Origin: an uncultured Clostridia bacterium
Lineage (GTDB): Bacteria; Bacillota; Clostridia; Christensenellales; Borkfalkiaceae
Reading direction: 5' to 3'
NCBI GenBank assembly: GCA_947175515.1
Contig: CAMWNA010000001.1
Coordinates: 637 to 64,636 of the forward strand
DNA length: 64,000 nt
Positions 43,473-61,786 of this stretch are shown piece by piece (positions within the stretch are counted from its first letter, which is position 1; the number at the start of each line of letters is the position of its first letter). The notes beneath the pieces are model-generated. The model did not search any database and had not been told where the DNA came from. It saw only the letters and a program-made list of their open reading frames with translations. The position numbers and the translations under genes were made by a program.

Positions 43473-44095
43473 TTGACCTCACAAAACGATATTGTCGCTT
43501 TAATTTTAGCATATGCCGCCAAATTTTTCAAGCTATATAATATCGGTAATTTGCAACTCGTCGTTTTAAACCCGAACAAATAAAAAAACCGGACTATAAA
43601 CTTAAAAATTTACAGACCGGTTTTCTGGCGCTTGTGATCAGACTTGTAAGAAGCGGCATGCCGCGACAGAGTAGCGTATTGTTACTTTTGCTTGCAAAAG
43701 TCAATCGCGTTCCGTATATGGTTGTTACATCGGATTTTAAGGCATATGCGTCAAATTTTCGTATTATTTAGACCGCACAAAATAAGGGCATTTTCAGCCA
43801 AAAACTCGCTAAAAACACCCTAAAATCAATACATTTCTTATATTTTCACAACTTATCCGTTTGTTAAAATTTCCCTAAAATCAGCAACTTCCCAAAACTT
43901 CCCAATTTCTTTCACAAAAATGAGCTAGCTTTTATAATTTTTTGCAAATTAAATAGCTAAATAGTTGAATATAAAAATCAATTAAAGCTTTGCTTAAAAC
44001 AAGTAGTTATAAAATAAAGTTAATAGCATAAAAGTGCGTGGCAGATTTTAGAATAATAAACAATTTCATGCCAAAATCAAAAAGCTAAACATAAT

Positions 44096-44143
44096 TTAAT
44101 CTATAAAGGGCAAGCGCAAAAGCGCCCGCCCTTTATAGATTAA
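44096..44143. terminator. Long perfect hairpin / terminator at the low-coordinate end of the AT-rich island
   Basis: 15-bp perfect arms TTAATCTATAAAGGG / CCCTTTATAGATTAA enclose a GCGC-AAAA-GCGC inner stem, 48 nt past the kinase-Nudix stop. Confidence 0.7.
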
Positions 44144-44190
44144 ATTAATTCTTATAGATATGTCCACTTCGCATTGATTAATCATTGAGT

Positions 44191-45618
44191 TTATTGGAAA
44201 TCGAAGAACGAAATTTGTGTTTTCGCTAGTTTTACATTAATACCAAAACATTTTTTTATAATTTCTATGCTCCAAGCTTCTAAAGACTCATTTTCATTTT
44301 CTATCAATTCATTTATATTGAGAAATTTCCCACTTTTACTTTTCCCTCTATTTTGAATGAGTTCTTCTGAGTCTATTGTTAATTTTTTCTTATCATCAAC
44401 TTTAATATGATAACAAATTGCAATATGTCTCTTGCTCCTTTCTAAATCAGGAGTGTAAATGCAGAAAGGCGTTGTATTTTCTAAAGAGAAGTTTACTCCA
44501 ATCTCTTCTCGCATTTCACGCAAAAGCGTATAATTGAAAATAGATAAATTATTGTGAGTATCTTTATCTGTTTTATCTTCAATTCTTGTATGCCCACCAA
44601 TATAAATTAGTAGCTTATCTTTTTCAGGATCATCATCAGAAACTGCTTTTGTCGTTTTTTTGACTGTGAGAACTCTTTTTGCTTTATAATCAGTTATTAC
44701 GACTATAGGTATAGGTTGTATTGCTTCATCATTGATTTCAACCTTTTCTCGTAGATCAAATTTTAAACTGCCGTTTAAAATTTTATTAAATTCATCAAAT
44801 TCGATGATTCGATGGTTCATCAAATATTCTTTGGCTTCACTTGAAGGGACAAAGTATCCAATTCGCTCCATTAATGTTTCCTTTAAAGTCGATAATACCT
44901 TTTTAGTTACTTCATAACTTACATCATTTTGATCCATATCTGAAGTATCCATAGGAATAATATTATGAAAATATTTCTTTTTAATATTAATTGTATTATG
45001 TATTGCTTCTTGATATTCGCCAAGAGTTTGATTATTCATTATTGTTCCCGTTTGGTCGGGTTTTAATAATAGTTTAGCATATTCACGATTTAAAGAAACT
45101 TCAGGTCTAGATTCAAAAGCGAAAATAATATCAATTTGCTTAGTAAATTCTTCCATTAAAAGAGGTGCTTCTATATTGTTTTTTTGTATTTTTGTAAGGC
45201 GTTTAATTTTATATAGCCATTCAAACCAACACATTGCATCAAATATACCCCTATCGATGATTAAAATGTCTGGTTTTTCACTTTTTCGATCAAGTATGGC
45301 CAACATATCAACTAAAGACTGATAGGCGGTCCATACGTTAAAAGTATAGTTTTGTTTGTCCGCAACAGGACATATACTTGCTTTTTCCTGTATTACTTCA
45401 ACTTTAAATTGATTTCTTTTTAGAAACAATTGTAAAGAACCTATAGAGGATGTTTTCCCGGACTTTGGAGAACCACTAAATTCAATAATAATTGGACGCA
45501 TTTGCCTATGCGTATTCTTTAGTTCTAAAACTTCTTTTGCTAATGTTGATAATTCTTTAATGTTTTTTTCTTTTTGTTTCTGTGCTTCATCTTTTTTCGT
45601 TGTCATCTTCGGTTTCAT
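44191..45618 (-). CDS. Fusion protein: N-terminal thymidylate/deoxynucleoside-kinase-like P-loop domain plus C-terminal Nudix-like hydrolase
   Basis: Walker A FSGSPKSGKTS and a DR motif (ILIIDRGIFD) as in Tmk/dNK-fold kinases. The C-terminus has GGHTRIE...REMREEIGV, i.e. the REUxEExGU part of the Nudix box with a longer than canonical spacer. RBS GAGGG lies 8 nt before ATG 45618. Confidence 0.7.
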   Translation of the reverse strand: MKPKMTTKKDEAQKQKEKNIKELSTLAKEVLELKNTHRQMRPIIIEFSGSPKSGKTSSIGSLQLFLKRNQFKVEVIQEKASICPVADKQNYTFNVWTAYQSLVDMLAILDRKSEKPDILIIDRGIFDAMCWFEWLYKIKRLTKIQKNNIEAPLLMEEFTKQIDIIFAFESRPEVSLNREYAKLLLKPDQTGTIMNNQTLGEYQEAIHNTINIKKKYFHNIIPMDTSDMDQNDVSYEVTKKVLSTLKETLMERIGYFVPSSEAKEYLMNHRIIEFDEFNKILNGSLKFDLREKVEINDEAIQPIPIVVITDYKAKRVLTVKKTTKAVSDDDPEKDKLLIYIGGHTRIEDKTDKDTHNNLSIFNYTLLREMREEIGVNFSLENTTPFCIYTPDLERSKRHIAICYHIKVDDKKKLTIDSEELIQNRGKSKSGKFLNINELIENENESLEAWSIEIIKKCFGINVKLAKTQISFFDFQ

Positions 45619-46198
45619 TGTTGTTTCCCTCTTCTGAAATATTTAATTTTTGAGATATTTTAAATCGACTAAACGCATCAAATTTATCAAGTAAATTACC
45701 AATCGAAAATCCAATAATACAAGATATTATCACTGAAAAATAAAAAAATCTATCATTAATAATATAATCCATAGATGAAGTTATAAGGATAAAGCCACCC
45801 AATAAGCTAAACACCGCTATTATAACAAACACGATGGCAAATAAAGGTCTTAAAATAAAATATAACACGTTTCCCAAAATTTGTTCACTAAAATCATCTC
45901 TAGGGTTATCGTTTTTTTTAATTATATCAATTCTTTTATCGATACATGCCTTATAAATTAATTGCAAATATTGAATTGAGCAAAAAGCACAAGTCATTCC
46001 AATCGAACATAAAATTGTAGTCAATAAGAGATTAGCCTTCAAATAGTATTCCAAATTAGATAAAATTATTATTGACCCAGTAATACCCAAAATTAATAAT
46101 AAAACGTAGTAAACAATGATAAGTACTGACCATGTTTTTGTAAGTGTGTATCTTAGATTCTTTCTCTTTTGCCATTTGGCATCTTTTTTATTGTCCAT
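45587..46198 (-). CDS. Four-TM membrane protein of unknown function
   Basis: 203 aa with a basic N-terminus, four hydrophobic helices and an acidic C-tail (EEGNNNETEDDNEKR). Its 3' end overlaps the kinase-Nudix start by 32 nt. Confidence 0.6.
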   Translation of the reverse strand: MDNKKDAKWQKRKNLRYTLTKTWSVLIIVYYVLLLILGITGSIIILSNLEYYLKANLLLTTILCSIGMTCAFCSIQYLQLIYKACIDKRIDIIKKNDNPRDDFSEQILGNVLYFILRPLFAIVFVIIAVFSLLGGFILITSSMDYIINDRFFYFSVIISCIIGFSIGNLLDKFDAFSRFKISQKLNISEEGNNNETEDDNEKR

Positions 46199-46400
46199 AA
46201 AAATCTTTACCTAAGTAATTATAGTATTATTATAGCATAAAAATATTTTGATTTCAATAGTGAATAACACTAAACGCTATAAATAACTATCAGCCGCATA
46301 TTCATCAATTCTGTCTTAATGATACTATTAAAACAAATTATTGCTCCCATTTTTTGCAGAATATAAACAACTAAACTAAATCTTGATTACAAGAAACATT

Positions 46401-46853
46401 TTAACGATTCTTTATAACTATCTTAAAAAAGTTTATACATGTCAAAACTAATAATATGATTGCAAAAATAAAACAAGCAATTGAAAACGAATTTAATATA
46501 TGTTGCGCCAACAAATATTCTTGCTCCGAATAAATGCAAATAGAAATAATAGAAACTATTATAACTACAGTAAACGAGATAATACTTATAATAAAATTGC
46601 GAGCAACTTGCTTATAGTAACCTTGCTTAATCAATGCTACTTTTATTTCCTCTCGTAAAGGAATTGAGTAATAAATTCCCAGAGCAGAAATTGTAAAACC
46701 AATAAATATACCTGCAGTTGTTAGTAGGGTAGAAGGCAGTTGTTCCGGGTTTATGATTAAAACATTTGTTGCCCCTAAAATTATAAAAGTAATTAATATT
46801 GTCAAACTTACTGCGGCTGAAACTATAATATGCTTTTCATTGGGTTTAATCAT
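46401..46853 (-). CDS. Four-TM small membrane protein of unknown function
   Basis: 150 aa with four hydrophobic helices. The start lies 5 nt after the stop of the 303-aa gene. Confidence 0.6.
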   Translation of the reverse strand: MIKPNEKHIIVSAAVSLTILITFIILGATNVLIINPEQLPSTLLTTAGIFIGFTISALGIYYSIPLREEIKVALIKQGYYKQVARNFIISIISFTVVIIVSIISICIYSEQEYLLAQHILNSFSIACFIFAIILLVLTCINFFKIVIKNR

Positions 46854-46858
46854 AATTA

Positions 46859-47770
46859 TTACTCCACATAGTTACTAAGAGCCAACACTAATTTGGTTTT
46901 TATTTTATCATACTTTTGCAAGTCAATATCATCTAAAGTTAAAACGGTTTTAACGGTAAAGTAATCTTCAAACAAATGTGTTATGTACTCGTTAAATTCC
47001 TCGTCTTGAAATTTTAAAACAGGTTTTTTAACTTTAATATGCCGATTAGGGTCTTGCACAATTTCTTTAATTAAATGTTTTGTAGGTCGTCTTACTTTAA
47101 TATAAATTGAAAACGAATTGATATTTCTATCCCAGTTTAGTGTCTGGTCAAGAGATTTTGAAATATCTCCACCGTTGTCCGCTATTTGGAATTCTATAGA
47201 CTGAAGTTTTTGCGAACGCTCAATTTTTTTAAGCAAATCGGCATTGCCCAAATAGTGAATAGAAATATTAATTTTACTATATTCAGATATGTATTTAGTA
47301 AGAAGTTTGTTTATATTTTTTAAACCTTTTTGCCCAATATAAACTATAGCCTTTTTCTCAATATCAATATAGAAAAAAGTAAAATATTTTATAATGATTG
47401 ATTTTATGCTTTCATTATTGGATGAATCTCGATACTCTTCCAATAAGTCATCAAATTCACGCTCGGTTGATATTTCGCCGAAATAATACTTATCAGTTGC
47501 CTCAATAATACGAATGCAATACCTTTGCTTATCACATTCATAATCAAAAGTACCTTTATCTGTATTATAGCTTTCATTAGAAATATTAAATGCACGTTCT
47601 AGGGCAGTTCGCAAATTAATCATTTGATCGCCAAAAACCCCAAACTGCTCAAAACTTGGGCTATCTATTTTCGCAAAACAGATAGTTTTAGAAAGTCCAC
47701 GTTCTTTTTTCTTCTTTTGTGGTATATTATCTCCAAATAAATTTTCCACTTCATCCTCCGTAAAATTCAT
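46859..47770 (-). CDS. Hypothetical protein, no recognisable domain
   Basis: 303-aa uninterrupted ORF, Lys/Ile/Asn-rich. Its ATG lies 2 nt after the upstream stop and its stop lies 5 nt before the next start. Confidence 0.55.
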   Translation of the reverse strand: MNFTEDEVENLFGDNIPQKKKKERGLSKTICFAKIDSPSFEQFGVFGDQMINLRTALERAFNISNESYNTDKGTFDYECDKQRYCIRIIEATDKYYFGEISTEREFDDLLEEYRDSSNNESIKSIIIKYFTFFYIDIEKKAIVYIGQKGLKNINKLLTKYISEYSKINISIHYLGNADLLKKIERSQKLQSIEFQIADNGGDISKSLDQTLNWDRNINSFSIYIKVRRPTKHLIKEIVQDPNRHIKVKKPVLKFQDEEFNEYITHLFEDYFTVKTVLTLDDIDLQKYDKIKTKLVLALSNYVE

Positions 47771-47772
47771 CT

Positions 47773-49464
47773 TTATTTAACAATCTCCCAGCAATAGCTA
47801 TCAAAACTAAAAATAGAGCGATTAAAACTAGCCTTTAATTCCTCAATATCCCTGCACAATTTTCCATAGACCCGACCCGTTTTATCAAAACTCATTTGTG
47901 GGTCTTCTTGAATTAAAACATACCAACCGCTATAAATATTGTGCGCTATTATTTCACTGCTGTCTCTTTCGTTCCATAATTGGAATAATGTTTTGCCCTG
48001 AAGTTGTACTTCTTTATCAAACTTTTTTGTAACGATTTCACCGTTTTTATTGTAAGTAATACCGACTATCCAGTCATCTTCTTTTTCAACATCTTCTACA
48101 GCTAAGAGATCTTGATATGATTGTACCCCAGATTTCCCAAAGCAACACCCACAATTGCATGTTTCCCCATTGACAACTATTTCACTATCAATACGATAGT
48201 TGCAATACCAGCATTCTATATCTTCAACACTATCTGAAGTAAGGGGACACGCAAAATAAGAATGGAGAACTCCTTGTCCCGAACCTCCTATGGGTTCGCA
48301 AATCTTCAACAATTTTTCTTTTGCCTTTAAGATTTCTTCGTGATGTATCCATTTCTTCTTTGAAATATCTGTTTGCAACAGATATTTCATTTCCGCATCT
48401 GTAACGCCATTTTTAGCCCACGACAAATCAATTTCAACTATATTAAATCTTTCGTCTTTTAGCCTTGATATTTCTTTTTCATCTGCACTTGATTTCATCC
48501 GAATCAATAGTGCAACAGGGTTGTCTTTACAATGTAAAATTATAGACTTTGGCGTACGAGCTTTTCCTTCATAGTAATATTCACTTTCTTGAAACTCTTC
48601 TGTCCAAGACTCTTTTATTACCATTCCCTTGCCCGCTGTTTTTAATATAATGTCTGGCAATTTCAATTTTTTCTCTGATTCAAATTGCGATTTTAGAAGT
48701 CCAAACAACTCTCCGCTAGTTCTGTACATTACAACTGCATTGTTAGACTCTGATTCATTCGTCCTCGGGAAATTAAACGGATTATTTGTTGACGTACGAA
48801 CGGGTTTTAATTCTTGTGCAACTTGTTTTGTCGTCGCTATTTCTTTCAAGGCAGTATTTAATGTTTCATTTGGTATCTCTATAGATGTTCTTACAGATTC
48901 TACAGGGTTTTTAGGCAATCCTCTTCTATATATCCATTCACCTAATGAGCCTCCTGATGACACTTTATCACTTTTCGCCCAGCTAAGCATTCGTTCCAAG
49001 CTTGTTGCAGCTTCCTCTTTACTTACTGCACGCATCCATTCAAAATCTCGATCAACATAGCTTTGTCGCAATTTTGATGGGTCTTTCAAAAACTCCTCAA
49101 TACTACCACATGCCAATATGATTTTTTTCGCAGTAATAGGATTTAGCAAGATATTTTCAAGCTTTGTAACCCATCTCAAATTTTCAGGGCGATTATTTCT
49201 GCGGTTTGTATCTATATGATCGACAACGTATTGCGATGATGGCGCTGCTCCATGAAATGCTGTCGCAACAATTCTATGTACCAGTTCCCCCGCAATTTCG
49301 GCATATCCGGTATTGGCATTGTATTTTCCAAAAGTCCAAACATTATCTGTCGGACGGGGCCTATTACCGATACGAGGATGACGCATAACCGTCCCGTTAT
49401 CTCGCACTGAATAAGTTTCACCTTTATAAGTACACTCTATTTCCTTTTCAAAATCATACAACAT
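47773..49464 (-). CDS. Multidomain protein: N-terminal phage-type HNH (HNH_3-like) nuclease, unknown central region, C-terminal Cys cluster
   Basis: HRIVATAFHG...VVDHIDTNRRNNRPENLRWVTKLEN is the HNH_3 pattern. The Cys cluster is CPLTSDSVEDIECWYCNYRIDSEIVVNGETCNCGCCFG. 563 aa. Confidence 0.65.
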   Translation of the reverse strand: MLYDFEKEIECTYKGETYSVRDNGTVMRHPRIGNRPRPTDNVWTFGKYNANTGYAEIAGELVHRIVATAFHGAAPSSQYVVDHIDTNRRNNRPENLRWVTKLENILLNPITAKKIILACGSIEEFLKDPSKLRQSYVDRDFEWMRAVSKEEAATSLERMLSWAKSDKVSSGGSLGEWIYRRGLPKNPVESVRTSIEIPNETLNTALKEIATTKQVAQELKPVRTSTNNPFNFPRTNESESNNAVVMYRTSGELFGLLKSQFESEKKLKLPDIILKTAGKGMVIKESWTEEFQESEYYYEGKARTPKSIILHCKDNPVALLIRMKSSADEKEISRLKDERFNIVEIDLSWAKNGVTDAEMKYLLQTDISKKKWIHHEEILKAKEKLLKICEPIGGSGQGVLHSYFACPLTSDSVEDIECWYCNYRIDSEIVVNGETCNCGCCFGKSGVQSYQDLLAVEDVEKEDDWIVGITYNKNGEIVTKKFDKEVQLQGKTLFQLWNERDSSEIIAHNIYSGWYVLIQEDPQMSFDKTGRVYGKLCRDIEELKASFNRSIFSFDSYCWEIVK

Positions 49465-49615: not shown

Positions 49616-50653
49616 TTATATATACAATTCTTTGGATAATTGTAGATCACACTGCCATTTAAATTGTTTGGCTACTTTTCGCTTGCGTATATAATCTTCC
49701 TTATCATAATAATAACATACAAAATGGGCATCATTATTAATCGCCTCGAATACAACATTATCAACCTCAGATAACGAGTGTCCTAAAATAACAACCTCAT
49801 CGTAGTGCTCATTTTTTAATTTTTCGATTATTTCTTGTCGAAAAGGCAAACAATTTTTACTCTTAATTCTAAGTAATTCTTTCAACTTGTCTGCACTATC
49901 TTTTACACTTGTCATTATTTCATTAAAAAAACGTACATACGATCCTTTCGGATGTAACTTATGGTTTTCATCTTCTTCATAATACGCCATCATTTCTTGT
50001 AATCCGAATTTACTTTTTTCAAAGCTGCCCATGGAAGGAAATTCACCATCAACAAAAACTTCATTCATCCTATCAATAGTATCACATCCAAGAAAAATTT
50101 TCTTATTTATATTTCCATGTATATGTATTACATCGTCTATACCATATAACTGTTCTACCGTGTTAGTATAATTGAACGATAAAATTTCATTAGCAGACTC
50201 TAATATTACTTTAATTTTTTCTTTTGGGAAAAAATTATTTCTAATATTATAATCATTGTATAATGCCCTTAAATATCCAGCAAACTCTCTTTCAAAATCG
50301 CAAAGCAATTTAACCCATATATCTATTTCGTCAATAAGCGAATTAAACATCTCATTATCATAACCATGATAATTTACATCCCCATATTTATTCAAACCAT
50401 AAGCATCAATAATACTACTCATCTCATCGTCAACTAGAAAAGGAATATCCAACTTACTTATAAATGTGTTTAATTTGCTTTTATAGTTGGTCTCAATTTC
50501 AGACCAACTATTCTTTCCATTCTTTAAATCAGCATATTTCCTATTTAAAACTTGAGAATTCGTTTCTATAAAATCTTCAAAATTTGTTTTTAATCCATGA
50601 CCCAAATCAAAGCCATTTCCAATTACAAATATTCTTTTCCCCAATTTATTCAC
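49616..50653 (-). CDS. abiH: AbiH-family abortive-infection protein
   Basis: The N-terminus IFVIGNGFDLGHGLKTNFEDFI matches the AbiH signature (GNGFDLxHGLxT.Y.DF); 345 aa; monocistronic spacing. Confidence 0.75.
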   Translation of the reverse strand: MNKLGKRIFVIGNGFDLGHGLKTNFEDFIETNSQVLNRKYADLKNGKNSWSEIETNYKSKLNTFISKLDIPFLVDDEMSSIIDAYGLNKYGDVNYHGYDNEMFNSLIDEIDIWVKLLCDFEREFAGYLRALYNDYNIRNNFFPKEKIKVILESANEILSFNYTNTVEQLYGIDDVIHIHGNINKKIFLGCDTIDRMNEVFVDGEFPSMGSFEKSKFGLQEMMAYYEEDENHKLHPKGSYVRFFNEIMTSVKDSADKLKELLRIKSKNCLPFRQEIIEKLKNEHYDEVVILGHSLSEVDNVVFEAINNDAHFVCYYYDKEDYIRKRKVAKQFKWQCDLQLSKELYI

Positions 50654-50911
50654 CTAAATATGAGATTGTTATTAAGCAACTTTTAATAGAGCTAAATATT
50701 TGATAAACTTCTTTATCGTGGGGTATAAAGTCGTATTGATTAAACTTCACGTTTTTGCACAAGAAACATTCTGTAGTTAATGATTTTGGGGTTTAAAAGT
50801 TGCACAACATCGCCCACCCATTTTATTATTGGTATAAATTAAGTACATTTTAGGTTGCAATGTCCATAGTACGAAATATCCACGTAAGGGAACGCTATTA
50901 CCAATAAACAA

Positions 50912-52654
50912 TTAATCTGCTGTCCATCGTGTTTCAAAATCTTCATTTTTTATTTTCAGTGCTTTGCTATATTTCTCATAAATATTTTTAAAGTTTAGCT
51001 TATAAGTTACCAATTGCATTCTAATAGCACTTTTAATATCAGATAAACAGCCTTTGTTTTTTACCCAGTTTTGAGGACTGAATATCTTTTTATTATCAAT
51101 AGCTTCTGATGAAGCATTTTCGAAGGCCATATTTAGGCATCCTCCAGCCATTTGCACAATTTCGCTCATCAACGAATACTCATTTAATTTTTTTAACACC
51201 GTATCGGGGTTTGGAACACTATCTGGCATCTTATTAATTTCGCAAAAAATAACAGAGATTGCGTACAGGTGATGATAAGGCGCATATGCTTTCATGGCAA
51301 GAAGCGATTCATTTAAACCAAGAGGATTATCTGGCGTCCATAATTCTGACACTGCTTCAAACAAATCTCTTAATGCCTGCATATTTTCAGGTAAATAATC
51401 TTTTTTAAAGAGTTGGCTAAAACATTTATCAAATATCTTTGTTTCACTATACGCTATTGTGGGACGCTGTGAATGCCAAGCTATTAATTGCTTACCTATA
51501 TCTGTCAAATTAATTACATGCTTAGGATTATATTTTATACAATCAACAACTTCCCCTCTTTTAGTTATAAAATATCCATCAGGAAAACGTTGTTCATAGG
51601 CTTTCTTCATTGCTAAAACATTTTTATCATTACTTCTGAGATCTCTTGCCTTAACTGCACTTTGCGAATTAGTTGATGTGCTAATTTTATCTGCCTTATC
51701 TGAATCGGTTATTTCATAAAAACGGAACATGATATAACCTTCATTCGAAGTTTTCACTGTTTCACTACAATTATAAATTGTGGTTAAAGATTGGCAACCA
51801 TTAACTATGTTTAATTCTTTAACGCTTAAAATATTTTCTTTTATGTCGATTTCGGAACATATTGCAGTTACACCATTATGCAAAAAGAAAAAGTTCTGTA
51901 TATCATTTTTAAGTGTATGTGCTATCCCTTTATTAACTTTATTACCACTACCTAATGACTGACGCACATTCTTACGGAAAAGCGTTTGATCTTTAATTCC
52001 TGGTATTTTTATACATTCTCTAAGCGGAATTGCAGCTATAACTGCTTTTGTCCCACTTAAATCTAATTCTATAAATTTACCGCTCTGTAAATTGAATTTA
52101 TGTGATATGTAAGGCTTAAATTTATTTAATGTTTCTAAGTATTTATTTTGTAATGTCGTGTTATCAATAAGCATTAAATTAGCTGTAAGCAAGTCGTCTT
52201 CCGCTAACTGTTTTTGGAACACTGCTAAATCTTTTTGAGCCGCTTCTGTTAAGGTAGACGTAGTCACTAATTCAAAGCATATGTCATAATCATCGTCAAT
52301 TGCATTTGATAACTCATTAATTTTTACTTTAAGCTTATCGTTTGCCGCTTCTTGCAATTTAGGCAAATCCTTTATAAGTATCCACGACGCTAAGACTTCT
52401 CTAAGCGGCTCTGAATCAACAACCTCTTTTGAATAAAATTTACCTTGAATTATATAAATCGTCGATGCTTGATTATCAATATAAACCGCATCAATTTGTT
52501 TATCGTTTGCTCCATCTGTAATACAATCTTTTGCTTGAATAGTATCTAAATTATGAATATTTCTTAAATACCATGCAATAAATCTTTGTCCGTCGTTTTG
52601 GTAATATTGTTGATAATATTCCTGTGAAATTTCTTCTTTGATTTTACTGTACAT
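50912..52654 (-). CDS. AIPR-family abortive-infection protein (N-terminal PD-(D/E)xK-like nuclease module)
   Basis: CITDGANDKQIDAVYIDNQASTIYIIQGKF is the typical AIPR N-terminal motif (DG.nD.GIDa..id....l.l.Q.K). 580 aa. Confidence 0.75.
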   Translation of the reverse strand: MYSKIKEEISQEYYQQYYQNDGQRFIAWYLRNIHNLDTIQAKDCITDGANDKQIDAVYIDNQASTIYIIQGKFYSKEVVDSEPLREVLASWILIKDLPKLQEAANDKLKVKINELSNAIDDDYDICFELVTTSTLTEAAQKDLAVFQKQLAEDDLLTANLMLIDNTTLQNKYLETLNKFKPYISHKFNLQSGKFIELDLSGTKAVIAAIPLRECIKIPGIKDQTLFRKNVRQSLGSGNKVNKGIAHTLKNDIQNFFFLHNGVTAICSEIDIKENILSVKELNIVNGCQSLTTIYNCSETVKTSNEGYIMFRFYEITDSDKADKISTSTNSQSAVKARDLRSNDKNVLAMKKAYEQRFPDGYFITKRGEVVDCIKYNPKHVINLTDIGKQLIAWHSQRPTIAYSETKIFDKCFSQLFKKDYLPENMQALRDLFEAVSELWTPDNPLGLNESLLAMKAYAPYHHLYAISVIFCEINKMPDSVPNPDTVLKKLNEYSLMSEIVQMAGGCLNMAFENASSEAIDNKKIFSPQNWVKNKGCLSDIKSAIRMQLVTYKLNFKNIYEKYSKALKIKNEDFETRWTAD

Positions 52655-52735
52655 AACAATTAATCCCCTTTGTATAATTAATGAAATTGTTTTGAAATTT
52701 TTTATGTTTTAAAAATTAGTAAATAAACTTTGTTA

Positions 52736-53365
52736 CTAAATTGATTCCTTGTCATTGATTAGGTCAATCACATGTTGTTCTAAAACAAAACAGAACTCAT
52801 CAAAAAATCCATTTTGCTTTTCCCTTAAACATGTTAATTCTTGACCCAAATCTTCTGGAAATTTAAGTTCATAATTTTCAATTGCATTTTTTCTTTGACT
52901 ATTCAAAAAATTAGTATTTAGCCCTAATATTCTTATGAGTTCTCTTCCAATTTCACCTTTACCCATAACTGTACCATCTTCAAAATAGGATAAAAGCCCT
53001 TCCACATTTTCTAGCGGAGAAATAGGAATATCTTTGTTCCCTTTCTTTGCATCACAATGAAGTTTATGCCTTGGTTTTACTCCATTTTCGCGATCTTTAT
53101 CACCGCCATCGCACGAAACTAACATGTTAGAGAAATCAAGCGCCAAATCATCGTGTTCCTCTTGACACTTTATATGCTCTATCTTTGTACGCTCATCATT
53201 TTTTATACGACAGCCACAATAACAACATATGTATCCCTGATCTTCTAACAGCCGCTTGCGTAAAGCCTTTTTGGGTTCTCCAGATAGCACATCAAATGAT
53301 ACACCAGGAGTTTTGCAAAATTCCGTAAATTCCACTGGAGGTGCCGTTTTAGTAATCTGCCTCAT
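52736..53365 (-). CDS. ptuB: Septu PtuB-like HNH endonuclease (TIGR02646-type)
   Basis: ICCYCGCRI...KIEHIKCQ...LHCDAKKGN is the HNH pattern of ATPase-associated TIGR02646 proteins. The start lies 1 nt after the ptuA stop. Confidence 0.75.
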   Translation of the reverse strand: MRQITKTAPPVEFTEFCKTPGVSFDVLSGEPKKALRKRLLEDQGYICCYCGCRIKNDERTKIEHIKCQEEHDDLALDFSNMLVSCDGGDKDRENGVKPRHKLHCDAKKGNKDIPISPLENVEGLLSYFEDGTVMGKGEIGRELIRILGLNTNFLNSQRKNAIENYELKFPEDLGQELTCLREKQNGFFDEFCFVLEQHVIDLINDKESI

Positions 53366-53366
53366 T

Positions 53367-54701
53367 CTATAATCTCCTCATAACTAGCCTCAGCTTAATA
53401 AACAAGGGATCATCCTCATCAAGTATTTGTTTCAGCTTTGAAATTATTTTTTCTGCCTTTTCTTTATTCCCATCGGCAATACATTGCTTAAATTCATCAT
53501 ACAACAAATGTACTTCTGGAGAACGCATATTAATATCCATATTTTCTTGCATTATTTCATCTAATGAACGATTATATGTTTCACTATTAATAAAACTGAC
53601 TTCTCCATCTTTCACTTTGAATACATTTTCACTTCTCAATCCTGAAATTGTAGAAGGGGAATGTGTTGTGAGAAAAATTTGTCCATTTGTTGAAAGTTTT
53701 TCAAATGTACTAGAAAATTTTCTTTGCCATTCTAAATGTAAATATGCGTCACATTCATCTAATAAATAGAGACAATTATCATTTTCGGTTATTTTTGATA
53801 ATAAAGAAATAAGCAAAACTTGTTTTTCGCCTTCACTTAAATTACCAAGTAAAATAGTTTCATGAAAATTATTATGAAAGTTAATAATAACGCGATCTAA
53901 ATACCCAGAATTTTTCAAAGCTTTCATTTTTGCAAAAAATTCGGAAGGAGTTTCTGCCAGATTTTTAATTTTGTCTGTATCCACAAAAGACATTGTGTAA
54001 TTCTCTCTGCCTTCTTCAGTTCTTTGCACATATTTTCTAAATTCATTAAAAAACGCTTGCACAAAACCAACTGCACCGTAATATTCTCCACCCGAATACG
54101 ATTTGTTTTTTGTCGGATTTTTAAGTATTAAATTAAATGGACAATAAATACTTTTAGAACCTAGATATTCTTTTATGTGATTTAATAATTCCCCCTGATA
54201 AACCGCCACAGTTAAAAGTAAAATATCCAAATCATATGTTGAAAAATACTCGATAAACTTATATCCTTCAAAATGATTCTTCTTTAATCTTTCATTATAC
54301 TTGTTATCAATAATTTTCTCTTCGACTTCTGCCAATCTTTTAGTTTCACCAGCATAATAAAGAAAAATAGATTTAGGCAAAACATCTTCAATATCCTCTT
54401 TTTTTACTTTTTCTGCAGCGTCGTTAAAAATTGAAACTCCCCCACTAATGTATTTTAAGGCATAATTATTTCCATCAATATTGTAATCTATTTCGCACTC
54501 ATCAACATTCGGCGGAGGAAAGACTTTCCCTTTCTGCAGAGAATTCTTCGTATAAGCAAAAACCTGCGCTATAAGTTCCAAAATATTAGACTTACCAGAA
54601 CCATTGTTACCAATAAAAGCAACAATATTGGAATCAGGCAAATTTATTGTAATATCTTTTAAGTTTTTATAATTTTTAATTATTATTTTTTTTAACTTCA
54701 T
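53367..54701 (-). CDS. ptuA: Septu PtuA-like ABC/OLD-type ATPase
   Basis: KNYKNLKDITINL...FIGNNGSGKSNILELI (Walker A), LSEGEKQ (signature), LYLLDECDAYLH (Walker B), TTHSP. 444 aa. Confidence 0.75.
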   Translation of the reverse strand: MKLKKIIIKNYKNLKDITINLPDSNIVAFIGNNGSGKSNILELIAQVFAYTKNSLQKGKVFPPPNVDECEIDYNIDGNNYALKYISGGVSIFNDAAEKVKKEDIEDVLPKSIFLYYAGETKRLAEVEEKIIDNKYNERLKKNHFEGYKFIEYFSTYDLDILLLTVAVYQGELLNHIKEYLGSKSIYCPFNLILKNPTKNKSYSGGEYYGAVGFVQAFFNEFRKYVQRTEEGRENYTMSFVDTDKIKNLAETPSEFFAKMKALKNSGYLDRVIINFHNNFHETILLGNLSEGEKQVLLISLLSKITENDNCLYLLDECDAYLHLEWQRKFSSTFEKLSTNGQIFLTTHSPSTISGLRSENVFKVKDGEVSFINSETYNRSLDEIMQENMDINMRSPEVHLLYDEFKQCIADGNKEKAEKIISKLKQILDEDDPLFIKLRLVMRRL

Positions 54702-54712
54702 CAGTTTCCCTT

Positions 54713-56098
54713 TTAGAGTTTTAATCCTTTTTTATTCTCTAATATTCTTTTTAAAAGGTCGATAGCTGGTTCATCGGCGGTGTTGGAAGTGCCGAGTTCG
54801 CCGCGGAATGCACACGCAAGAATCGATTTTTTCATTTCGTCGATTTTGTCAAGCATATCGATAAGTTCTTTCGACTTATCTTCCTTTTCAAAAATGGAAT
54901 CCAAAATCCGTACAATTTCTTCTTGCTCTTGTCTTGAGGGTATAATGAAGTCTAAATTTCTGCTTTGCGTAACGGAAATATTTGCTTGTCCTACAACACC
55001 TTTTGTCTTACTAATAACATCATCTAAAGTATTGGGCCACAATAACAAATAGTATAAAAATTTAGGGATAATATATTCTTTGGCTCTGAATCTAACAATT
55101 GCTTGATTCATGTTCCATTTTTGATAAGTTCCTGGAATTATCGCAATCTTTCTTAAAGGTGGACCAACAATATTCATAACTATATCATTGGGTTTAAGTT
55201 CAGAGCTTTTTAATTTTTTGTTTGCTTCTAGATTTATAAATTGTGGCCTATATTCAAAATCGATTTTATTGTCCACAATATTGTATACTTTTAGAAATGG
55301 AATCTCTCCATGTTCTAATATGTCTTGAGTGGGAGTATGTCCACAGCTTATTTTTTCACAACACGCATCCTGTGCATTTATCTTTAGCCACCCAAAAGAA
55401 AGTTCCTGAAATCTGGAAAGATTTAAACGCTTTGAAATTTCTACAGCATTATCCAGCCTATGTTCTTCTCTCCACTTTTTTGTTAATTCGCCAGTAAATG
55501 CTTTGTGGAGAATGGCTGATTTGCGGTCAACAAAAGAATCCAAAGATTTTTGGATTAAATCACGAGCTTCGTCTAATTTTGCAAACTGTTTTTCAATTAT
55601 TCCAACAATACGTTGTTGTTCTTCTAATGGAGCTAGCGGAAATGATAAATTGAAAAACAATTCTTTGTTAAGGTGAGGAATAGCTGAACCTATTTTGTTG
55701 TTTCTTAATTCATCTTGATGCGATGAAATAAAATACCGGACATAAATTTCATTTAATGTTTTATCGATATCCAGTATTCTGAAAGTGCTTCCCATATATC
55801 CATGTTTAGGTATATCGAAAACTTCCCCTGAATTTTCCCCATCAACTAAAATAACCCTCTGCCCTTCATTGACTATAACGCCATTATTTTTAGTCAGTTC
55901 ATAATTTTGGGTACGTAGTGTTTTTACATCCAGATAAAACAATTCCTCTTTGTCGATTTTTTCTCCGTTATCTAATTTGCAAACAGTCCCTAATCTTGTC
56001 CAGCACCAGTTTGACGGCAAGCTATATGGCGTTTTTTCGTAGAGAACAAGTGCTTCCTCTAACCGCTGTTCTATGGACTTTTCTTGCTTTTTTGCCAT
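54713..56098 (-). CDS. hsdS: Type I restriction-modification specificity subunit
   Basis: Two target-recognition halves, each ending in a conserved helix (PLAPLEEQQRIVGIIEKQF and IPSRQEQEEIVRILDSIF). 1-nt overlap with hsdM. Confidence 0.9.
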   Translation of the reverse strand: MAKKQEKSIEQRLEEALVLYEKTPYSLPSNWCWTRLGTVCKLDNGEKIDKEELFYLDVKTLRTQNYELTKNNGVIVNEGQRVILVDGENSGEVFDIPKHGYMGSTFRILDIDKTLNEIYVRYFISSHQDELRNNKIGSAIPHLNKELFFNLSFPLAPLEEQQRIVGIIEKQFAKLDEARDLIQKSLDSFVDRKSAILHKAFTGELTKKWREEHRLDNAVEISKRLNLSRFQELSFGWLKINAQDACCEKISCGHTPTQDILEHGEIPFLKVYNIVDNKIDFEYRPQFINLEANKKLKSSELKPNDIVMNIVGPPLRKIAIIPGTYQKWNMNQAIVRFRAKEYIIPKFLYYLLLWPNTLDDVISKTKGVVGQANISVTQSRNLDFIIPSRQEQEEIVRILDSIFEKEDKSKELIDMLDKIDEMKKSILACAFRGELGTSNTADEPAIDLLKRILENKKGLKL

Positions 56099-57507
56099 TA
56101 CTTATTCTCCAACGCTTTAAGCTCTTTAATTACACTATTAATTAAATCAATAGCCTCTTCCAAGTTAGAAACAACCTCTTCGCCACTTTCTACAGGATCG
56201 GCTAAATCTTCGTAATCTTTAACGCTTTCATCCCGAATCAAGCCTAAATCCAAGCTATCGTTATATTCATTTTCTATTTGTTCGCGCGTAAAAGAAGACC
56301 AGCGCTCGCCCTTTCTTTGCGTTTTGTCGTTATACCCCAAAACAAACTCATCAAAATCACTATGACGGAGCGTTCTAGTTTTGCCAAAGCTGTCCATATT
56401 AGTACGCATATCGTAGAAAGTAACTTCTTTAGTATTATCTTTTTCGGTAACGCCACGAGTAAAGAACAGCACATTTGTTTTTACGCCTTGCGCATAGAAA
56501 ATACCTGTAGGAAGGCGCAAAACAGTATGCAGGTTACAAAAATCCATAAGTTGTCTTCTTACGCTTATTCCATCGCCACTAGCAAAGAGTACATTATCCG
56601 GTAACACGACCGCGCAACGTGCCTTTCCGTCTGCCTTTAAACTACGATATATAACCTGCAAGAAGTTGAGTTGTTTATTCGATGTTTGGAAATCGATATC
56701 GTCACGTGTAGGACGCTCTCCTCCTTTCTTGTTTCCAAATGGCGGGTTTGTCAGAATAACGTCAAACCCATTTAATCCCTTTGCGCTTTGTGAAAGCGAA
56801 TCGCCAAGAACAATGTTCGCGTTTACATTATGAAGGTACGCATTCATAAGTGCAAGACGATGTGTTTCGTGGACAAGCTCTACTCCGTTAAACGCTTTAT
56901 TCCTTTGAAAATCTGCTTGTCTATCTGTCAACTTATAAAAATCAATGTTTTGATTTACGAAAGTATTTGCGGCAATCATGAAACCAAACGTGCCACAAGC
57001 AGGGTCAAAACATCTTTCTCCAAGTTGCGGAGCGACAAGTTTTGTCATTATGTCAATCAAAACTCTGGGAGTAAAATACTGACCTGCGCCCGATTTTTTC
57101 TCGTTTGCATTCTTTTCGAGCAAACCCTCATATAAATCACCAAGCCCCTCTTCTTTTGCTTCGTACCAGTCAAGCCTGTCAATTTCTTTTATAATTTTTT
57201 CAAGATTTTTGGGCTCTTCTATGCTTGAAGACGCATTAGCATAAATTTGAGCAACTTTACCAACAGATTTTTCACCCAGTTCGGTAAGCAAGGTATAATA
57301 ATACTTTTTGAGCTCTAATCCTGACTTATTAGTAAGAGAATCCCAACGATATTCCTGCGGAATTTCGCTTTCAGCGCCTGTTTCTTTTGCCATTTTCAAG
57401 AAAAGAATATAAGTAAGTTCGGTAACGTATTGGTGATAGGTAATTCCGTCATCCCTTAATACGTTACATAAATTCCAAAGTTTTTGTACTATGTCTTGCG
57501 TACTCAT
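56098..57507 (-). CDS. hsdM: Type I R-M N6-adenine DNA methyltransferase subunit
   Basis: HsdM N-terminal domain (LWNLCNVLRDDG), motif I FDPACGTFGF, motif IV LTNPPFG. 469 aa. Confidence 0.95.
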   Translation of the reverse strand: MSTQDIVQKLWNLCNVLRDDGITYHQYVTELTYILFLKMAKETGAESEIPQEYRWDSLTNKSGLELKKYYYTLLTELGEKSVGKVAQIYANASSSIEEPKNLEKIIKEIDRLDWYEAKEEGLGDLYEGLLEKNANEKKSGAGQYFTPRVLIDIMTKLVAPQLGERCFDPACGTFGFMIAANTFVNQNIDFYKLTDRQADFQRNKAFNGVELVHETHRLALMNAYLHNVNANIVLGDSLSQSAKGLNGFDVILTNPPFGNKKGGERPTRDDIDFQTSNKQLNFLQVIYRSLKADGKARCAVVLPDNVLFASGDGISVRRQLMDFCNLHTVLRLPTGIFYAQGVKTNVLFFTRGVTEKDNTKEVTFYDMRTNMDSFGKTRTLRHSDFDEFVLGYNDKTQRKGERWSSFTREQIENEYNDSLDLGLIRDESVKDYEDLADPVESGEEVVSNLEEAIDLINSVIKELKALENK

Positions 57508-60500
57508 TATGCTACTCCTTGCTCATAGATATAGGTGTTTATTTCTCTGATGATTTCCAAAAGCTTTCCTTCAAACTTAACGTTAAAGCGTTTAAATCCG
57601 CCATCCATTTTGAAAGCAGGCGCTTCAAAGGTTTCTACGTTTAACAGACTTTCGTGAAGCATATAGGTTTTTATTTTTTCAAGAAGGTCGATTTGAATTT
57701 TATTAAAGCTATGCGCTTTGATTAGTTTTTCAAAAGCTATTTTTATTTTGTCTTCTCTATTAAAAACAGGGACGTCTAAGACGGCGTTTCGAACGTAAGA
57801 AATTATATCGGCAACGATGTCTGCATTTTTAACTACACTTGTTGCGTTGTTAAGTGAAGTTTCGTTATATCCTTCTTTATCCAGTGCAAGTCTAAGTTCA
57901 CGAAGTTGTGCTCTCGTTAAATCTGAAGGCTTGGTGCAGGCAATTTTAATTGCTTCAATTTTATCTTTGTTTTCGTTTACGAATTTTGTAAAAGCATCAA
58001 GATAATCGTCGGGTTTATCGGTTTTGCCATATCCTCTTGTGGTTTCTTGCAAAGTGTCTTTTCGTTCCGAATAATATTGTCCTTTCTTCGGCGAAGTAAT
58101 GCTTTCAATATAAACCAAAGTTTCAGCGTCTTTTATAAGCATATCAACAGCCTGTTGCACAGACAAAACCTTGATGCTTGCAACATATTGCGGTATTGAT
58201 TTGCCTATATTTTCTTTGACCTCATATCTTTGGTCTTCAGAAAGTGCATTGTTTTTGCGTTGTAGTTTTGCCAAAATTCTATCTATTATCTGTTGCTTAC
58301 TGTTTTGGGAAGGGTGTGACAACTCTTCAATGAGTTCCATCATTGACTTGTTCACGGAAACGGCCCTCATTGAATTCACCGAACCTAAATCCTCATAAAC
58401 GTGCGCAGGATCAAAAATATTAAAGTGTGTTTTTTGAATTTCTTTGCAAAGGCGCGTAGCACGACCCAACATTTGCTCATATAAAATACGGCTATTGATT
58501 TTGCGCATAAAAACCAAATTGCAAATTTGAGGGACATCGATACCCGTTGTCAACAAATCTACAGTTACGGCAATATTGGGATATTGGTTATTTTTATACT
58601 GTTTGATTACTTGCTCTATTTTCTTTTTGCTGCCACTTGCCGTTTTGCCGGTAATCTTTACAATCGCGTCATTCGACACGCCCCATTCCGAATATATCTC
58701 ACGGAGAGTTGCGACAATGTTATCCGCATGATTATCGTTTACGGCAAAAATCAGCGTTTTTTCACGACCTTCAGGATTGATATAATTTGAAATTTCTTTT
58801 AAAACCTTTTGGGTATGATCTGGCAAGACTATCTTTCGATTGAAATCCGACACATCAAAATCCAGTTCATCCTGTAGAACTTCACCATTTATGAGCTCGC
58901 CCGTATTAGGATCGAACATACCAAGTTGTTCGCCTTTTTTAAATGTTACAGGACTGGTATTAAAATCAGTATTTATAATATACGGAGGATCGTGATCAAC
59001 CAGCCATCCGTCAATTACCGCTTCCCTATAACTGTAAGTAAATATGGGTGAACCGAAAATTTGCGTAGTATGAAGCGCAGGTGTTGCCGTCAATCCTATT
59101 TTTACCGCATCGAAATATTCAATGACTTGCTTATACTTACCTAAATAATCGTCCTGCGAGTCATAAAGCATTTCATCTGCCGACATTTCTTTGTCAAGTA
59201 TATATCCTCGGTGTGCTTCATCAACTATAATTAAGTCAAAAGCACCAGAAGTAAGTTCAGGTTTTTCAGCTAAAATTGTTCTTTTAAGTAAACCTTGAAC
59301 AGTTGAAACACTTACCTTTGTTTCAAGATCCACCGTTTTATCTTCTATATCTTTAACGTCGTAAATTTGGCAAAGCGTTTGGAGTTCTTTCAGCTTTACA
59401 TCTTTAAACGTGTCCATAGCCTGTCCACCAAGCGCAGTTCTATCTACAAGAAACAATATACGCTTAAAACGTTTTGTTTCCAGCATTTTATAGATTAGAC
59501 CTAAGACAGTTCTTGTTTTGCCCGTACCTGTGGCCATTGCAATCAACACATTTTGTTGACCATTAATAATTGCTTGAGTTGCCTTATTTATTGCTTTTAT
59601 CTGATAATCACGTAAATTAAGTCCATTAGGATCTGCCATATACGAGTCGTCAGAAGTGGTAAGGGCGTTGTTTGCCTCCTCCACATTTTGTTTTAATTTT
59701 GCCATCAAGTCGTCTGGACTAAACCAATTGCGTATGGGATACGAGATATTTGAAAGCTGTCTTGCATCTAAATACCATATGCCTGATTTCGTTTTGATTT
59801 GCTCTAAATACGGTCTACCATTAGTTGCAAAAAGAAATGGCACGCTACAGCCAACCCAGTTATCAATAATAAAATTGGCGTGTTCGGGTTTAATATTTTT
59901 AGCGTAGTCTTTAATCTGCACATCAATCGTAGATGCTACATCTTCAGCGGGCTTTTTTGCATCAATCAACCCAACAAATTGTTCACCGACAAACAAAGCG
60001 TAATCGGCAAAACCTTTTGCCATTGCTGAAGAATTTGTCGGCCATTCAGCTATTGCCATATTGCGACCTTTAACTGGTCTAGATCCTTTACTATATCTTA
60101 TAACTTGTGTGTCAGCTTCCCACCCCGCTTTTCTTAACTGCTCGTCAATAAAAAACCTAATTTGTTTCTCTGAAAGAGTCATAAGCTTTGCATTTTGCTC
60201 AGACTTTCTGCGATTTTGTTGAATATTTGATTTATACTTAATGGGTGCGATAGGGACAATACTCTTTAGTCTAGCGATTTCATCTTCTTGTTCTTGTATT
60301 ATTTTTGCATAATTCGGTGCTTTTTCGGGCAAAACATATTCGCTGTATACAGTAGTTGCACTCCCATACGTAGCATTAAACCAAACACATAATTTATAAG
60401 AAAGTTCAAGCATCAATTTTGCCCTTTCAAAGGAATCTAAATTAGCGTGAACAGCTTCGTTTCTTGCTTTTCTTAGACCATATAAAATATCATCAATATC

Positions 60501-60731
60501 TCTTGGTAAAAGATGTTTTACTTTTAGTTGACGTATTTTATCTGCCTGCGTGTTTTCCTCTTCGGGCATAATAATACCATTAGCGTCAACAATGTAAGTT
60601 ACAATATATTCCGCAAGCATACCAAGCTTTATCAAACAAGAATTCGGATCATCGTGTATGTAATTTTCTGCCGATTGAGCCAATTTTGCTATTAACGGCC
60701 ATTCCTCTTGTAAGAAATCGAAATTTGACAT
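57507..60731 (-). CDS. hsdR: Type I R-M restriction/helicase subunit with a DUF4145-like N-terminal extension
   Basis: MATGTGKTRT (motif I), IIVDEAHRG (DEAH), QMLGRATR (motif VI). The N-terminal ~110 aa (FDFLQEEWP...LRKARNEAVHAN) look like DUF4145. 1074 aa. Confidence 0.95.
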   Translation of the reverse strand: MSNFDFLQEEWPLIAKLAQSAENYIHDDPNSCLIKLGMLAEYIVTYIVDANGIIMPEEENTQADKIRQLKVKHLLPRDIDDILYGLRKARNEAVHANLDSFERAKLMLELSYKLCVWFNATYGSATTVYSEYVLPEKAPNYAKIIQEQEDEIARLKSIVPIAPIKYKSNIQQNRRKSEQNAKLMTLSEKQIRFFIDEQLRKAGWEADTQVIRYSKGSRPVKGRNMAIAEWPTNSSAMAKGFADYALFVGEQFVGLIDAKKPAEDVASTIDVQIKDYAKNIKPEHANFIIDNWVGCSVPFLFATNGRPYLEQIKTKSGIWYLDARQLSNISYPIRNWFSPDDLMAKLKQNVEEANNALTTSDDSYMADPNGLNLRDYQIKAINKATQAIINGQQNVLIAMATGTGKTRTVLGLIYKMLETKRFKRILFLVDRTALGGQAMDTFKDVKLKELQTLCQIYDVKDIEDKTVDLETKVSVSTVQGLLKRTILAEKPELTSGAFDLIIVDEAHRGYILDKEMSADEMLYDSQDDYLGKYKQVIEYFDAVKIGLTATPALHTTQIFGSPIFTYSYREAVIDGWLVDHDPPYIINTDFNTSPVTFKKGEQLGMFDPNTGELINGEVLQDELDFDVSDFNRKIVLPDHTQKVLKEISNYINPEGREKTLIFAVNDNHADNIVATLREIYSEWGVSNDAIVKITGKTASGSKKKIEQVIKQYKNNQYPNIAVTVDLLTTGIDVPQICNLVFMRKINSRILYEQMLGRATRLCKEIQKTHFNIFDPAHVYEDLGSVNSMRAVSVNKSMMELIEELSHPSQNSKQQIIDRILAKLQRKNNALSEDQRYEVKENIGKSIPQYVASIKVLSVQQAVDMLIKDAETLVYIESITSPKKGQYYSERKDTLQETTRGYGKTDKPDDYLDAFTKFVNENKDKIEAIKIACTKPSDLTRAQLRELRLALDKEGYNETSLNNATSVVKNADIVADIISYVRNAVLDVPVFNREDKIKIAFEKLIKAHSFNKIQIDLLEKIKTYMLHESLLNVETFEAPAFKMDGGFKRFNVKFEGKLLEIIREINTYIYEQGVA

Positions 60732-60750
60732 AATGTCTCCATATTTAAAA

Positions 60751-61641: not shown

Positions 61642-61786
61642 AGCATAGCACCTCATATAAGAGCATATCATATTATCGGCAAAAAATCAATGTATAATGC
61701 AAATTAATTTGTTATGATTTTGCCGTTATCGGCATATCTATTAGGCGCTGTATTTATAACAAAATCTACAAGCATTTAAATTAATT

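Follow-up and report, generated by a model that had tools for sequence, protein, structure and literature searches.

A four-helix membrane protein paired with a kinase-Nudix fusion enzyme: a candidate new anti-phage module in an uncultured Clostridia bacterium

Lambda RexAB is a two-gene abortive-infection system with a small protein of four transmembrane helices (4-TM), and in CBASS, Pycsar, Hailong and Panoptes a constant nucleotide-processing enzyme is combined with interchangeable toxic effectors, small membrane proteins among them. Another pair with a 4-TM component is San Juan, which consists of SjdA (a DUF4760 protein) and the 4-TM protein SjdB, has been validated experimentally and shows abortive-infection behaviour (PMC12366544). 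The locus described here lies in a stretch of 64,000 nucleotides from an uncultured Clostridia bacterium (GenBank assembly GCA_947175515.1, contig CAMWNA010000001.1, positions 637 to 64,636 of the forward strand), which as a whole is called the window in the following. On its minus strand, the gene for a 203-aa 4-TM membrane protein (45587..46198) overlaps the gene for a 475-aa protein (44191..45618, including the stop codon), in which a P-loop kinase is fused to a Nudix-type hydrolase. We think that this pair is an autonomous, horizontally mobile conflict module, most likely an anti-phage system of the abortive-infection type, and we place roughly even confidence in this reading; comparative genomics supports the pair as a candidate new defence system.

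With San Juan, the pair has in common the small four-helix membrane protein and the single cytosolic partner, but the fusion protein has no DUF4760 match, and the 4-TM proteins of both systems were compared by description only. As SjdA is a DUF4760 protein, identity with San Juan was rejected. In lambda RexAB, the partner of the 4-TM protein is RexA, whereas here it is predicted to be a bifunctional nucleotide enzyme, and there was no PADLOC or Pfam match that would connect the two. San Juan and RexAB offer the closest functional analogy to the mechanism that is proposed below. From CBASS, Pycsar, Hailong and Panoptes the pair differs in that no cyclase or nucleotidyltransferase was detected by PADLOC, and the various partners of the fusion share no SAVED, CARF or cNMP-binding domain. 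The original prediction, made from the DNA letters, knew of no named defence system with this architecture, and the searches of PADLOC v2, NCBIfam, Pfam and the literature were all negative. For both proteins the comparison with PADLOC-DB v2.0.0 (which includes RexAB, Kiwa, CBASS, Pycsar and the PDC candidates) gave no family at E <= 0.1, no NCBIfam anti-phage model matched either of them, and the literature searched describes no system of a kinase-Nudix enzyme and a membrane protein.

The two open reading frames (ORFs) share 32 nt, and the overlap of a four-helix protein gene with the 475-aa ORF, as it had been read from the letters, is borne out by the ORF list, hydropathy and an AlphaFold model. 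A GAGGG ribosome-binding site for the fusion gene (45627..45631, minus strand) is found within the 4-TM ORF, 8 nt 5' of the fusion ATG, and this location predicts a translational coupling of the fusion gene to the 4-TM gene. The 4-TM gene is separated from the preceding ORF (46401..46853) by a gap of 202 bp, which contains a promoter-like site of the two-gene operon (46229..46257, minus strand; TTGAAA-17-TATAAT with a TG extension, 11 of 12 consensus positions matched) about 30 nt 5' of the 4-TM start codon. At the other end, about 50 nt 3' of the fusion stop codon, a terminator-like hairpin follows (44098..44141, minus strand) with a 20-bp stem, a G+C-rich core, a 4-nt loop and an imperfect T-tail. 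The upstream gap and the terminator hairpin that had been ascribed to the pair as its own are thus both present. In an Rfam scan of the operon region no riboswitch or other RNA family was found, the only matches being spurious ones of microRNA precursors to the terminator hairpin. With a 5' untranslated region of just ~25 nt in addition, a control of the operon by a riboswitch or another RNA was rejected.

The evidence that the two genes belong together comes from the homologues of the fusion protein. A word-indexed search returned 477 of them, and the best 120 listed cover at least 92% of the query; an exhaustive search resulted in 969, 489 and 147 clusters at 50% identity for thresholds of E <= 1e-3, 1e-10 and 1e-30, respectively. 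Among 185,579 genomes (one genome per species) the family occupies only 52 loci, scattered over Bacillota, Bacteroidota, Alpha-, Gamma- and Deltaproteobacteria, Acidobacteriota, Planctomycetota, Spirochaetota and Ignavibacteriota. A 4-TM homologue, as recognized by a hidden Markov model (HMM), is encoded on the same strand directly upstream of the fusion at 37 of 45 genome loci and at 65 of 74 metagenome loci, the latter drawn on purpose from a divergent clade, which together makes 102 of 119 evaluable loci (82-88%). The concern that the homologues might be mostly housekeeping proteins of the NadR or NadM type without linkage to the membrane protein gene is contradicted by this association. 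At three further loci (L026, L134 and L140) a four-helix protein of similar size stands beside the fusion and was missed by the HMM. When the 4-TM protein itself was used as the query, a single-sequence search found only 3 proteins, a number that reflects the sensitivity limit of the tool and not rarity; a profile search found 39.

Within the 102 linked loci, the genes overlap in 58 cases (often by 4 nt or 1 nt) and are spaced by 0-30 nt in 43, counts that rest on naive start calls; the overlap is hence not universal. The pairwise divergence of the 4-TM protein follows that of the fusion closely (Pearson 0.89), with the membrane protein evolving faster (mean identity 30% versus 48% for the fusion). 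The closest relative, with 86% identity, has the same pair, which there adjoins three restriction-modification (R-M) genes and an Xre-type helix-turn-helix gene and lacks the 150-aa and 303-aa genes that adjoin the pair in the window. As the pair is kept amid different neighbours, the 4-TM gene and the fusion gene can be regarded as an autonomous unit. These comparisons show that the unit is conserved and horizontally mobile, and that its two genes are translationally coupled and diverge together.

The fusion protein was modelled with AlphaFold on the basis of 33 homologues (pLDDT 86.6, pTM 0.84). Its N-terminal half contains a P-loop kinase domain at about aa 38-250 (44869..45507, minus strand), which in Foldseek matches deoxyguanosine kinase (dGK; PDB 2ocp, E 6.3e-7), followed by deoxycytidine kinase (dCK), Drosophila deoxynucleoside kinase (dNK) and thymidylate kinase (TMK), with E-values that range from 6e-7 to 1e-5. 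The fold, the P-loop and the DR-type motif after strand 3 are shared with these kinases, and in the window protein the motifs are the Walker A sequence GSPKSGKT (45451-45474), IIDRG and CPV..K....FN.WT. The CPV...W stretch occupies the place of the EPV..W acceptor-site motif of dNKs. The domain differs from the known kinases in its fusion to Nudix, in having one conserved LID arginine and in a sequence likeness below every family threshold: Pfam AAA_28 scores 17.6 bits where 27 are required (E 0.0046), and the PHROG thymidylate kinase family phrog_2107 is likewise sub-threshold (E 0.0055). The arginine, which is located in SIEREY, is the only invariant one in the LID-equivalent region across the 33 homologues.

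The C-terminal half, from about aa 241-251 to 475 (44194..44868, minus strand), is a Nudix module with an N-terminal helical extension. Its top Foldseek match is PDB 3e57, the putative Nudix protein TM1382 (E 1.1e-7, TM-score 0.69 on the target), to which also a sequence profile match was obtained (E 5.4e-6), and phrog_8902 matches the module with E 1e-11. These structural matches, together with motifs that are nearly invariant, confirm the original description of the protein as a Tmk/dNK-like kinase joined to a Nudix-like hydrolase. TM1382 (COG4112) from Thermotoga maritima, whose function is unknown, has the same fold, the same helical extension, the same GGHxRxxD...REUxEE box and also a long spacer within it. 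It is, however, a standalone protein of ~200 aa without a kinase or a known membrane partner, whereas the window protein has a longer spacer (19) and an extra SKSGxF...WS motif. The Nudix box of the window protein, GGHTRIED-x19-REMREEIGV (44494-44598, minus strand), departs from the canonical 23-residue spacing GX5EX7REUXEEXGU, as GGHTRIE is separated from RE by 19 residues where the canonical box has 7, and across the fusion family the box reads GGHxRxx[DE]-(13-30)-REUxEE, with the C-terminal SKSGxF...WS motif conserved as well. The noncanonical long spacer that had caught attention in the sequence is therefore real, and since it also occurs in TM1382, it marks a divergent subfamily and not a decayed site.

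The catalytic motifs of both domains are very well preserved. Invariant in the 33 homologues are the Walker A motif GSPKxGK[TS], the D-R-G of LILDRGxFD and CPV..K....FN.WT on the kinase side, and R, E and EE of the REUxEE helix (REMREEIGV in the window) on the Nudix side; this helix is kept in nearly all of 86 representatives. In almost all of these 86 full-length cluster representatives, down to ~28% identity, the P-loop and the Nudix box are both retained, and the DRG motif is present in most divergent representatives. A loss of the Nudix box in many divergent members had been considered and was rejected, as the alignment shows that the box is kept and that the initial pattern was too strict. 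Both motif sets persist to ~28% identity and are under strong purifying selection, and their conservation argues that both enzyme activities matter. The constant component of the module is a rigid two-domain cytosolic enzyme with intact catalytic motifs, in which a kinase of the dNK/TMK fold is joined to a TM1382-type Nudix domain. Known signatures for the Nudix substrates ADP-ribose, NADH, CoA and diadenosine tetraphosphate (Ap4A) were compared with the fusion, and none of them matched convincingly.

Searches of 2.9 million IMG/VR viral contigs, of 50,697 phage genomes and of 72,556 plasmids revealed no instance of the fusion, and on this ground a phage-borne or anti-defence gene was rejected. 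Phages carry standalone TM1382-like Nudix proteins or dNK/TMK kinases only. Standalone TM1382-type Nudix proteins are found in BFVD for the Pseudomonas phages nickie (A0A2H4P778), Noxifer (A0A1Y0SVG3) and PaBG (S5VM58), with TM-scores of up to 0.73 on the target; several of these are jumbo phages.

The membrane protein consists of four long transmembrane helices and a C-terminal amphipathic helix, according to hydropathy and an AlphaFold model (pLDDT 82.7), and the positive-inside rule predicts an N-in/C-in topology. Its conserved motifs are Y.RKLYKAC, G..YF..RP.F and GFS.G, and the conserved residues (Y77, Y82, K83, G109, Y113, F114, R117, P118 and GFSxG) are located at the cytoplasmic membrane interface and not in the membrane core. 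No family was found for it in Pfam, PADLOC, NCBIfam or PHROG, and its fold has no significant match in the PDB (best E 0.4). The matches of the model to structures resembling G-protein-coupled receptors were rejected as noise, with E >= 0.4.

A membrane protein next to a nucleotide kinase also recalls cofactor salvage, as the logic of Pnu-type uptake is the coupling of a membrane protein to a kinase. NadR (with a P-loop kinase) and NadM (with a Nudix domain), together with the membrane protein PnuC, represent the same domain classes as the pair in the window (PMC9503650). In such a scheme, a nucleoside or cofactor precursor would enter the cell by way of the 4-TM protein and be phosphorylated, and thereby trapped, by the kinase, and the Nudix domain would act on a dinucleotide precursor. 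The weak AAA_28 match, AAA_28 being the ribosylnicotinamide-kinase-type domain of NadR, could be taken for this, and so could the dNK-like fold with a candidate catalytic glutamate, an inferred assignment, which suggests that a hydroxyl group is phosphorylated. However, NadR and NadM never fuse the kinase to Nudix, the 4-TM protein is not PnuC-like and has no fold match to any transporter, and its conserved residues lie at the cytoplasmic surface instead of the membrane core. No adenylyltransferase domain for nicotinamide mononucleotide, with its HIGH motif, was found in Pfam and NCBIfam scans, and the neighbourhoods contain neither recurrent NAD genes nor a conserved metabolic context. A family so rare and patchy, which in the window is located in a low-G+C island and elsewhere occupies mobile islands, and in which RelA/SpoT, HD or putAbiC proteins can take the place of the membrane partner (see below), does not fit salvage either. 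NAD salvage of the NadR/NadM type was rejected on the missing adenylyltransferase domain, the missing NAD-gene context and the patchy island distribution, and Pnu-like salvage in general we consider very improbable.

For the reading as an abortive-infection module, it is relevant that the 4-TM protein is not the only partner of the fusion; the other genes found next to it often overlap as well. At L115, a membrane protein of 343 aa that contains a putAbiC (abortive infection) domain takes the slot, and at L136 a protein with a transmembrane segment and TPR repeats does so. RelA_SpoT proteins take it at L037, L098 and L103; these resemble the small alarmone synthetases (SAS) RelQ and RelP, with E 4e-10 to PDB 2be3. 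At L030, an HD + HD_assoc protein of the dNTPase type overlaps the start of the fusion, and in L065, L066 and L048 an additional HD + HD_assoc gene is located directly upstream of the 4-TM gene. The protein from L065 is a clear homologue of deoxynucleoside triphosphate (dNTP) triphosphohydrolases (E 6e-37 to 2dqb). Small HD proteins of ~215-235 aa are encoded immediately 3' in L027, L030, L133, L145 and L147, and some loci (such as L035, L047 and L051) have the fusion without an obvious partner. Defence genes for dGTPase/dNTPase and dCTP deaminase resemble the module in their nucleotide-centred chemistry and recur as its immediate neighbours or operon partners in L030, L065/L066/L048 and L115. 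They are, however, single-gene systems with known reactions, whereas the fusion is not homologous to them and normally has a membrane protein as its partner.

The architecture of the enzyme itself varies as well. P0160 (663 aa) combines the kinase and the Nudix module with a second Nudix module, and P0309 (480 aa) is a kinase-kinase protein without Nudix. In L059 (9258-10609) and L060 (9250-10609), kinase-only relatives of ~230 aa overlap proteins of 213-224 aa, which have two N-terminal transmembrane helices followed by a soluble domain with a weak NYN-like match. As the partners in these two loci are transmembrane proteins, this suggests that the kinase module alone may be able to team up with membrane proteins.

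The partner of the fusion is probably the effector, because the proteins seen in its place (putAbiC, SAS-like and dNTPase/HD) belong to the classic toxic or effector domains. Upon infection, the enzyme would read or remodel a (deoxy)nucleotide or an alarmone-like nucleotide by phosphorylation and by hydrolysis of a pyrophosphate bond, and it would then unleash the toxic activity of the partner, either by direct contact or by means of a small product. In the window, the 4-TM protein would permeabilize or depolarize the membrane, so that growth is halted ahead of the formation of phage progeny. In other lineages, this part would fall to a putAbiC membrane protein, to RelQ/RelP-like pyrophosphokinases or to dNTP-triphosphohydrolase/HD proteins. 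The earlier suggestion of a nucleotide-centred immunity agrees with this swapping to putAbiC, RelA/SpoT-like and HD/dNTPase partners, but the particular depletion of dNTP, NAD or ADP-ribose pools that it named is speculation. In a more general form, which we put forward tentatively and regard as rather doubtful, the locus could represent an undescribed class of immune modules, in which a signal of the (deoxy)nucleotide or alarmone-like kind is produced, edited or degraded by the kinase-Nudix enzyme, and in which this signal or the enzyme gates interchangeable effectors (4-TM, putAbiC, RelQ-like proteins and dNTP triphosphohydrolases), linking phage-induced changes of the nucleotide pool to abortive infection.

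The main rival to this assignment retains the defence reading and reverses the roles. The enzyme would be the effector that drains nucleotide pools, and the 4-TM protein a membrane sensor, anchor or regulator, as is thought of KwaA in Kiwa. Such a drain could result from a futile cycle, in which (d)NTPs or (d)NDPs are hydrolyzed by the Nudix domain and rephosphorylated at the expense of ATP, or deoxynucleosides and dNTPs could be funnelled into dNMP. Nucleotide depletion is an established defence strategy, as exemplified by the dGTPase and dCTP deaminase defence genes, and both catalytic sites of the fusion are strictly conserved. Also the occurrence of the fusion without an obvious partner and the recurrence of nucleotide-pool enzymes as its companions (dNTP triphosphohydrolase, dCTP-deaminase-like and small HD proteins) would agree with an effector role of the enzyme. 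It would, however, be odd for a sensor to be replaced by RelA/SpoT-like, HD dNTPase or putAbiC proteins, which are typical toxic or effector domains, and in the 4-TM protein the conserved residues face the cytoplasm and not the outside of the cell. A kinase that opposes a Nudix hydrolase is moreover no obviously efficient way to drain a pool. We consider reversed roles unlikely.

The genomic surroundings of the family change from locus to locus and repeatedly include defence and mobile-element genes. In 9 of 10 independent contexts annotated with Pfam, an R-M, AbiE, dNTPase or PDC-S02-type gene is found within a few genes, often together with integrases or transposases. When the three nearest neighbours on each side were compared with PADLOC, the matches listed included AbiEi, MADS, PDC-S02, R-M types I, II and IV, dGTPase, SoFic, PDC-M30, PDC-M41 and HmaC. 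The defence and nucleotide genes that recur near the fusion are R-M, AbiEi, AbiEii, HD proteins and dCTP-deaminase-like genes, and the mobile-element genes comprise phage-type integrases, IS110 and Mutator transposases, a resolvase, TnpV, Mob_Pre and RepA_N. A YhcG/DUF1016 nuclease of the PDDEXK type (PADLOC candidate PDC-S02) is located directly beside the module in six loci (L013:8421-9443, L067:8445-9467, L068:5482-6504, L009:3863-4879, L095:4445-5464 and L129:7201-8220). In L067, the end of the nuclease gene overlaps the 4-TM start by 11 nt, for which reason it may be co-transcribed with the module, and in L067 and L068 the nuclease and the module reside on a mobilizable element with a chloramphenicol acetyltransferase gene. 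The proximity to defence genes that had been proposed as a check was thus found in that the family repeatedly adjoins defence and mobile-element genes, but the counts are qualitative and come without a control set.

This mobility could also speak for a toxin-antitoxin or addiction module that stabilizes mobile islands and is not dedicated to the defence against phages, with the membrane protein as the toxin and the enzyme as the antidote. The operon of two tight, translationally coupled genes would suit such a module, as would its location on integrative or mobilizable elements beside integrases, transposases, Mob_Pre and TnpV, and the swappable upstream partners are toxin-like and include toxSAS-like RelA/SpoT proteins. 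However, not one of the 72,556 plasmids contains the fusion, although addiction modules are common on plasmids, and an antidote of 460 aa whose two catalytic sites are kept down to ~28% identity would be an atypical antitoxin. Toxin-antitoxin and abortive-infection functions are furthermore not mutually exclusive, and therefore this explanation overlaps with the one we prefer. Both the addiction module and the Pnu-like salvage are less likely than an anti-phage module of the abortive-infection type, and the addiction module as such we consider improbable.

Several points weigh against the abortive-infection module that we favour. The effector role of the 4-TM protein is one that we infer from the partner-swap pattern only, and every alternative partner type is known from one to five loci only. 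The 4-TM protein has no recognizable ligand-binding domain and no fold or sequence likeness to known pore-forming or ion-channel effectors. In L035, a solo fusion is located between a BON-domain gene and frr/uppS, which counts against the reading because a pure regulator of a toxic partner is not expected to occur alone. Housekeeping genes are also common neighbours, and the counts of defence neighbours are raw, without a background control, so that the association with defence islands is a qualitative one. The adjacency of dNTPase and dCTP-deaminase-like genes could reflect co-location in islands rather than a functional link. Finally, the scan for a name covered PADLOC-DB v2.0.0, with DefenseFinder and PADLOC releases after 2023 outside its scope, and a recent name is possible.

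If the pair is a defence system, it would add an enzymatic core of a kinase and a Nudix hydrolase, as well as a new family of membrane effectors, to nucleotide-centred immunity, and it would provide the first functional context for the TM1382/COG4112 Nudix family, of which a structure was released in 2008. Members of the family are known from nine phyla or more, and they are common in metagenomes of gut Clostridia and Bacteroidales. The recurrent coupling to dNTPase, HD and RelA/SpoT-like proteins hints at a cross-talk of deoxynucleotide or alarmone metabolism with a membrane-based cell suicide. Should the module use a nucleotide signal, the TM1382-type Nudix proteins of phages would be candidate counter-defence enzymes. 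As a compact module of two genes on 2 kb with its own promoter, it is easy to test.

In the window, the pair is located at the edge of a block of low G+C content, which amounts to 29-35% at 44-56 kb and mostly to 43-50% across the remaining window. This block also holds AbiH, an AIPR protein, a PtuA/PtuB-like pair, a type I R-M system, a Fic protein and a RecD2-like helicase. From 49616 to 63985, a dense defence island extends with all genes on the minus strand, among them AbiH, AIPR (MzaE-like), a SoFic-like Fic protein and the RecD2-like helicase; a PtuB-like HNH protein and a PtuA-like ATPase (Septu-type) are wedged there against hsdS-hsdM-hsdR. On the other side of the pair, a spacer of 718 bp without ORFs (43473-44190) coincides with the G+C boundary, holds the terminator hairpin and separates the island from TetR, DUF308 and ABC-transporter genes. 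Within the window, the spacer and the boundaries of the island yielded neither a tRNA nor an Rfam family nor flanking direct repeats, for which reason the mechanism of insertion of the island is not visible there.

Directly upstream of the kinase-Nudix pair, a 303-aa protein without a match in any library is encoded on the minus strand (46859-47770), followed after 5 nt by the gene for a 150-aa protein with multiple transmembrane helices (46401-46853, minus strand), which has a weak match to the PADLOC '4TM effector' (E 0.05). These two genes look like a second, separate two-gene candidate. Its layout of a soluble and a 4-TM protein is like that of San Juan, but it has no DUF4760 match. Next to it, a 563-aa protein (47773-49464, minus strand) has an HNH_3 endonuclease domain at its N-terminus (aa 61-104, E 6e-19) and a cysteine-rich, uncharacterized C-terminal region of ~450 aa.

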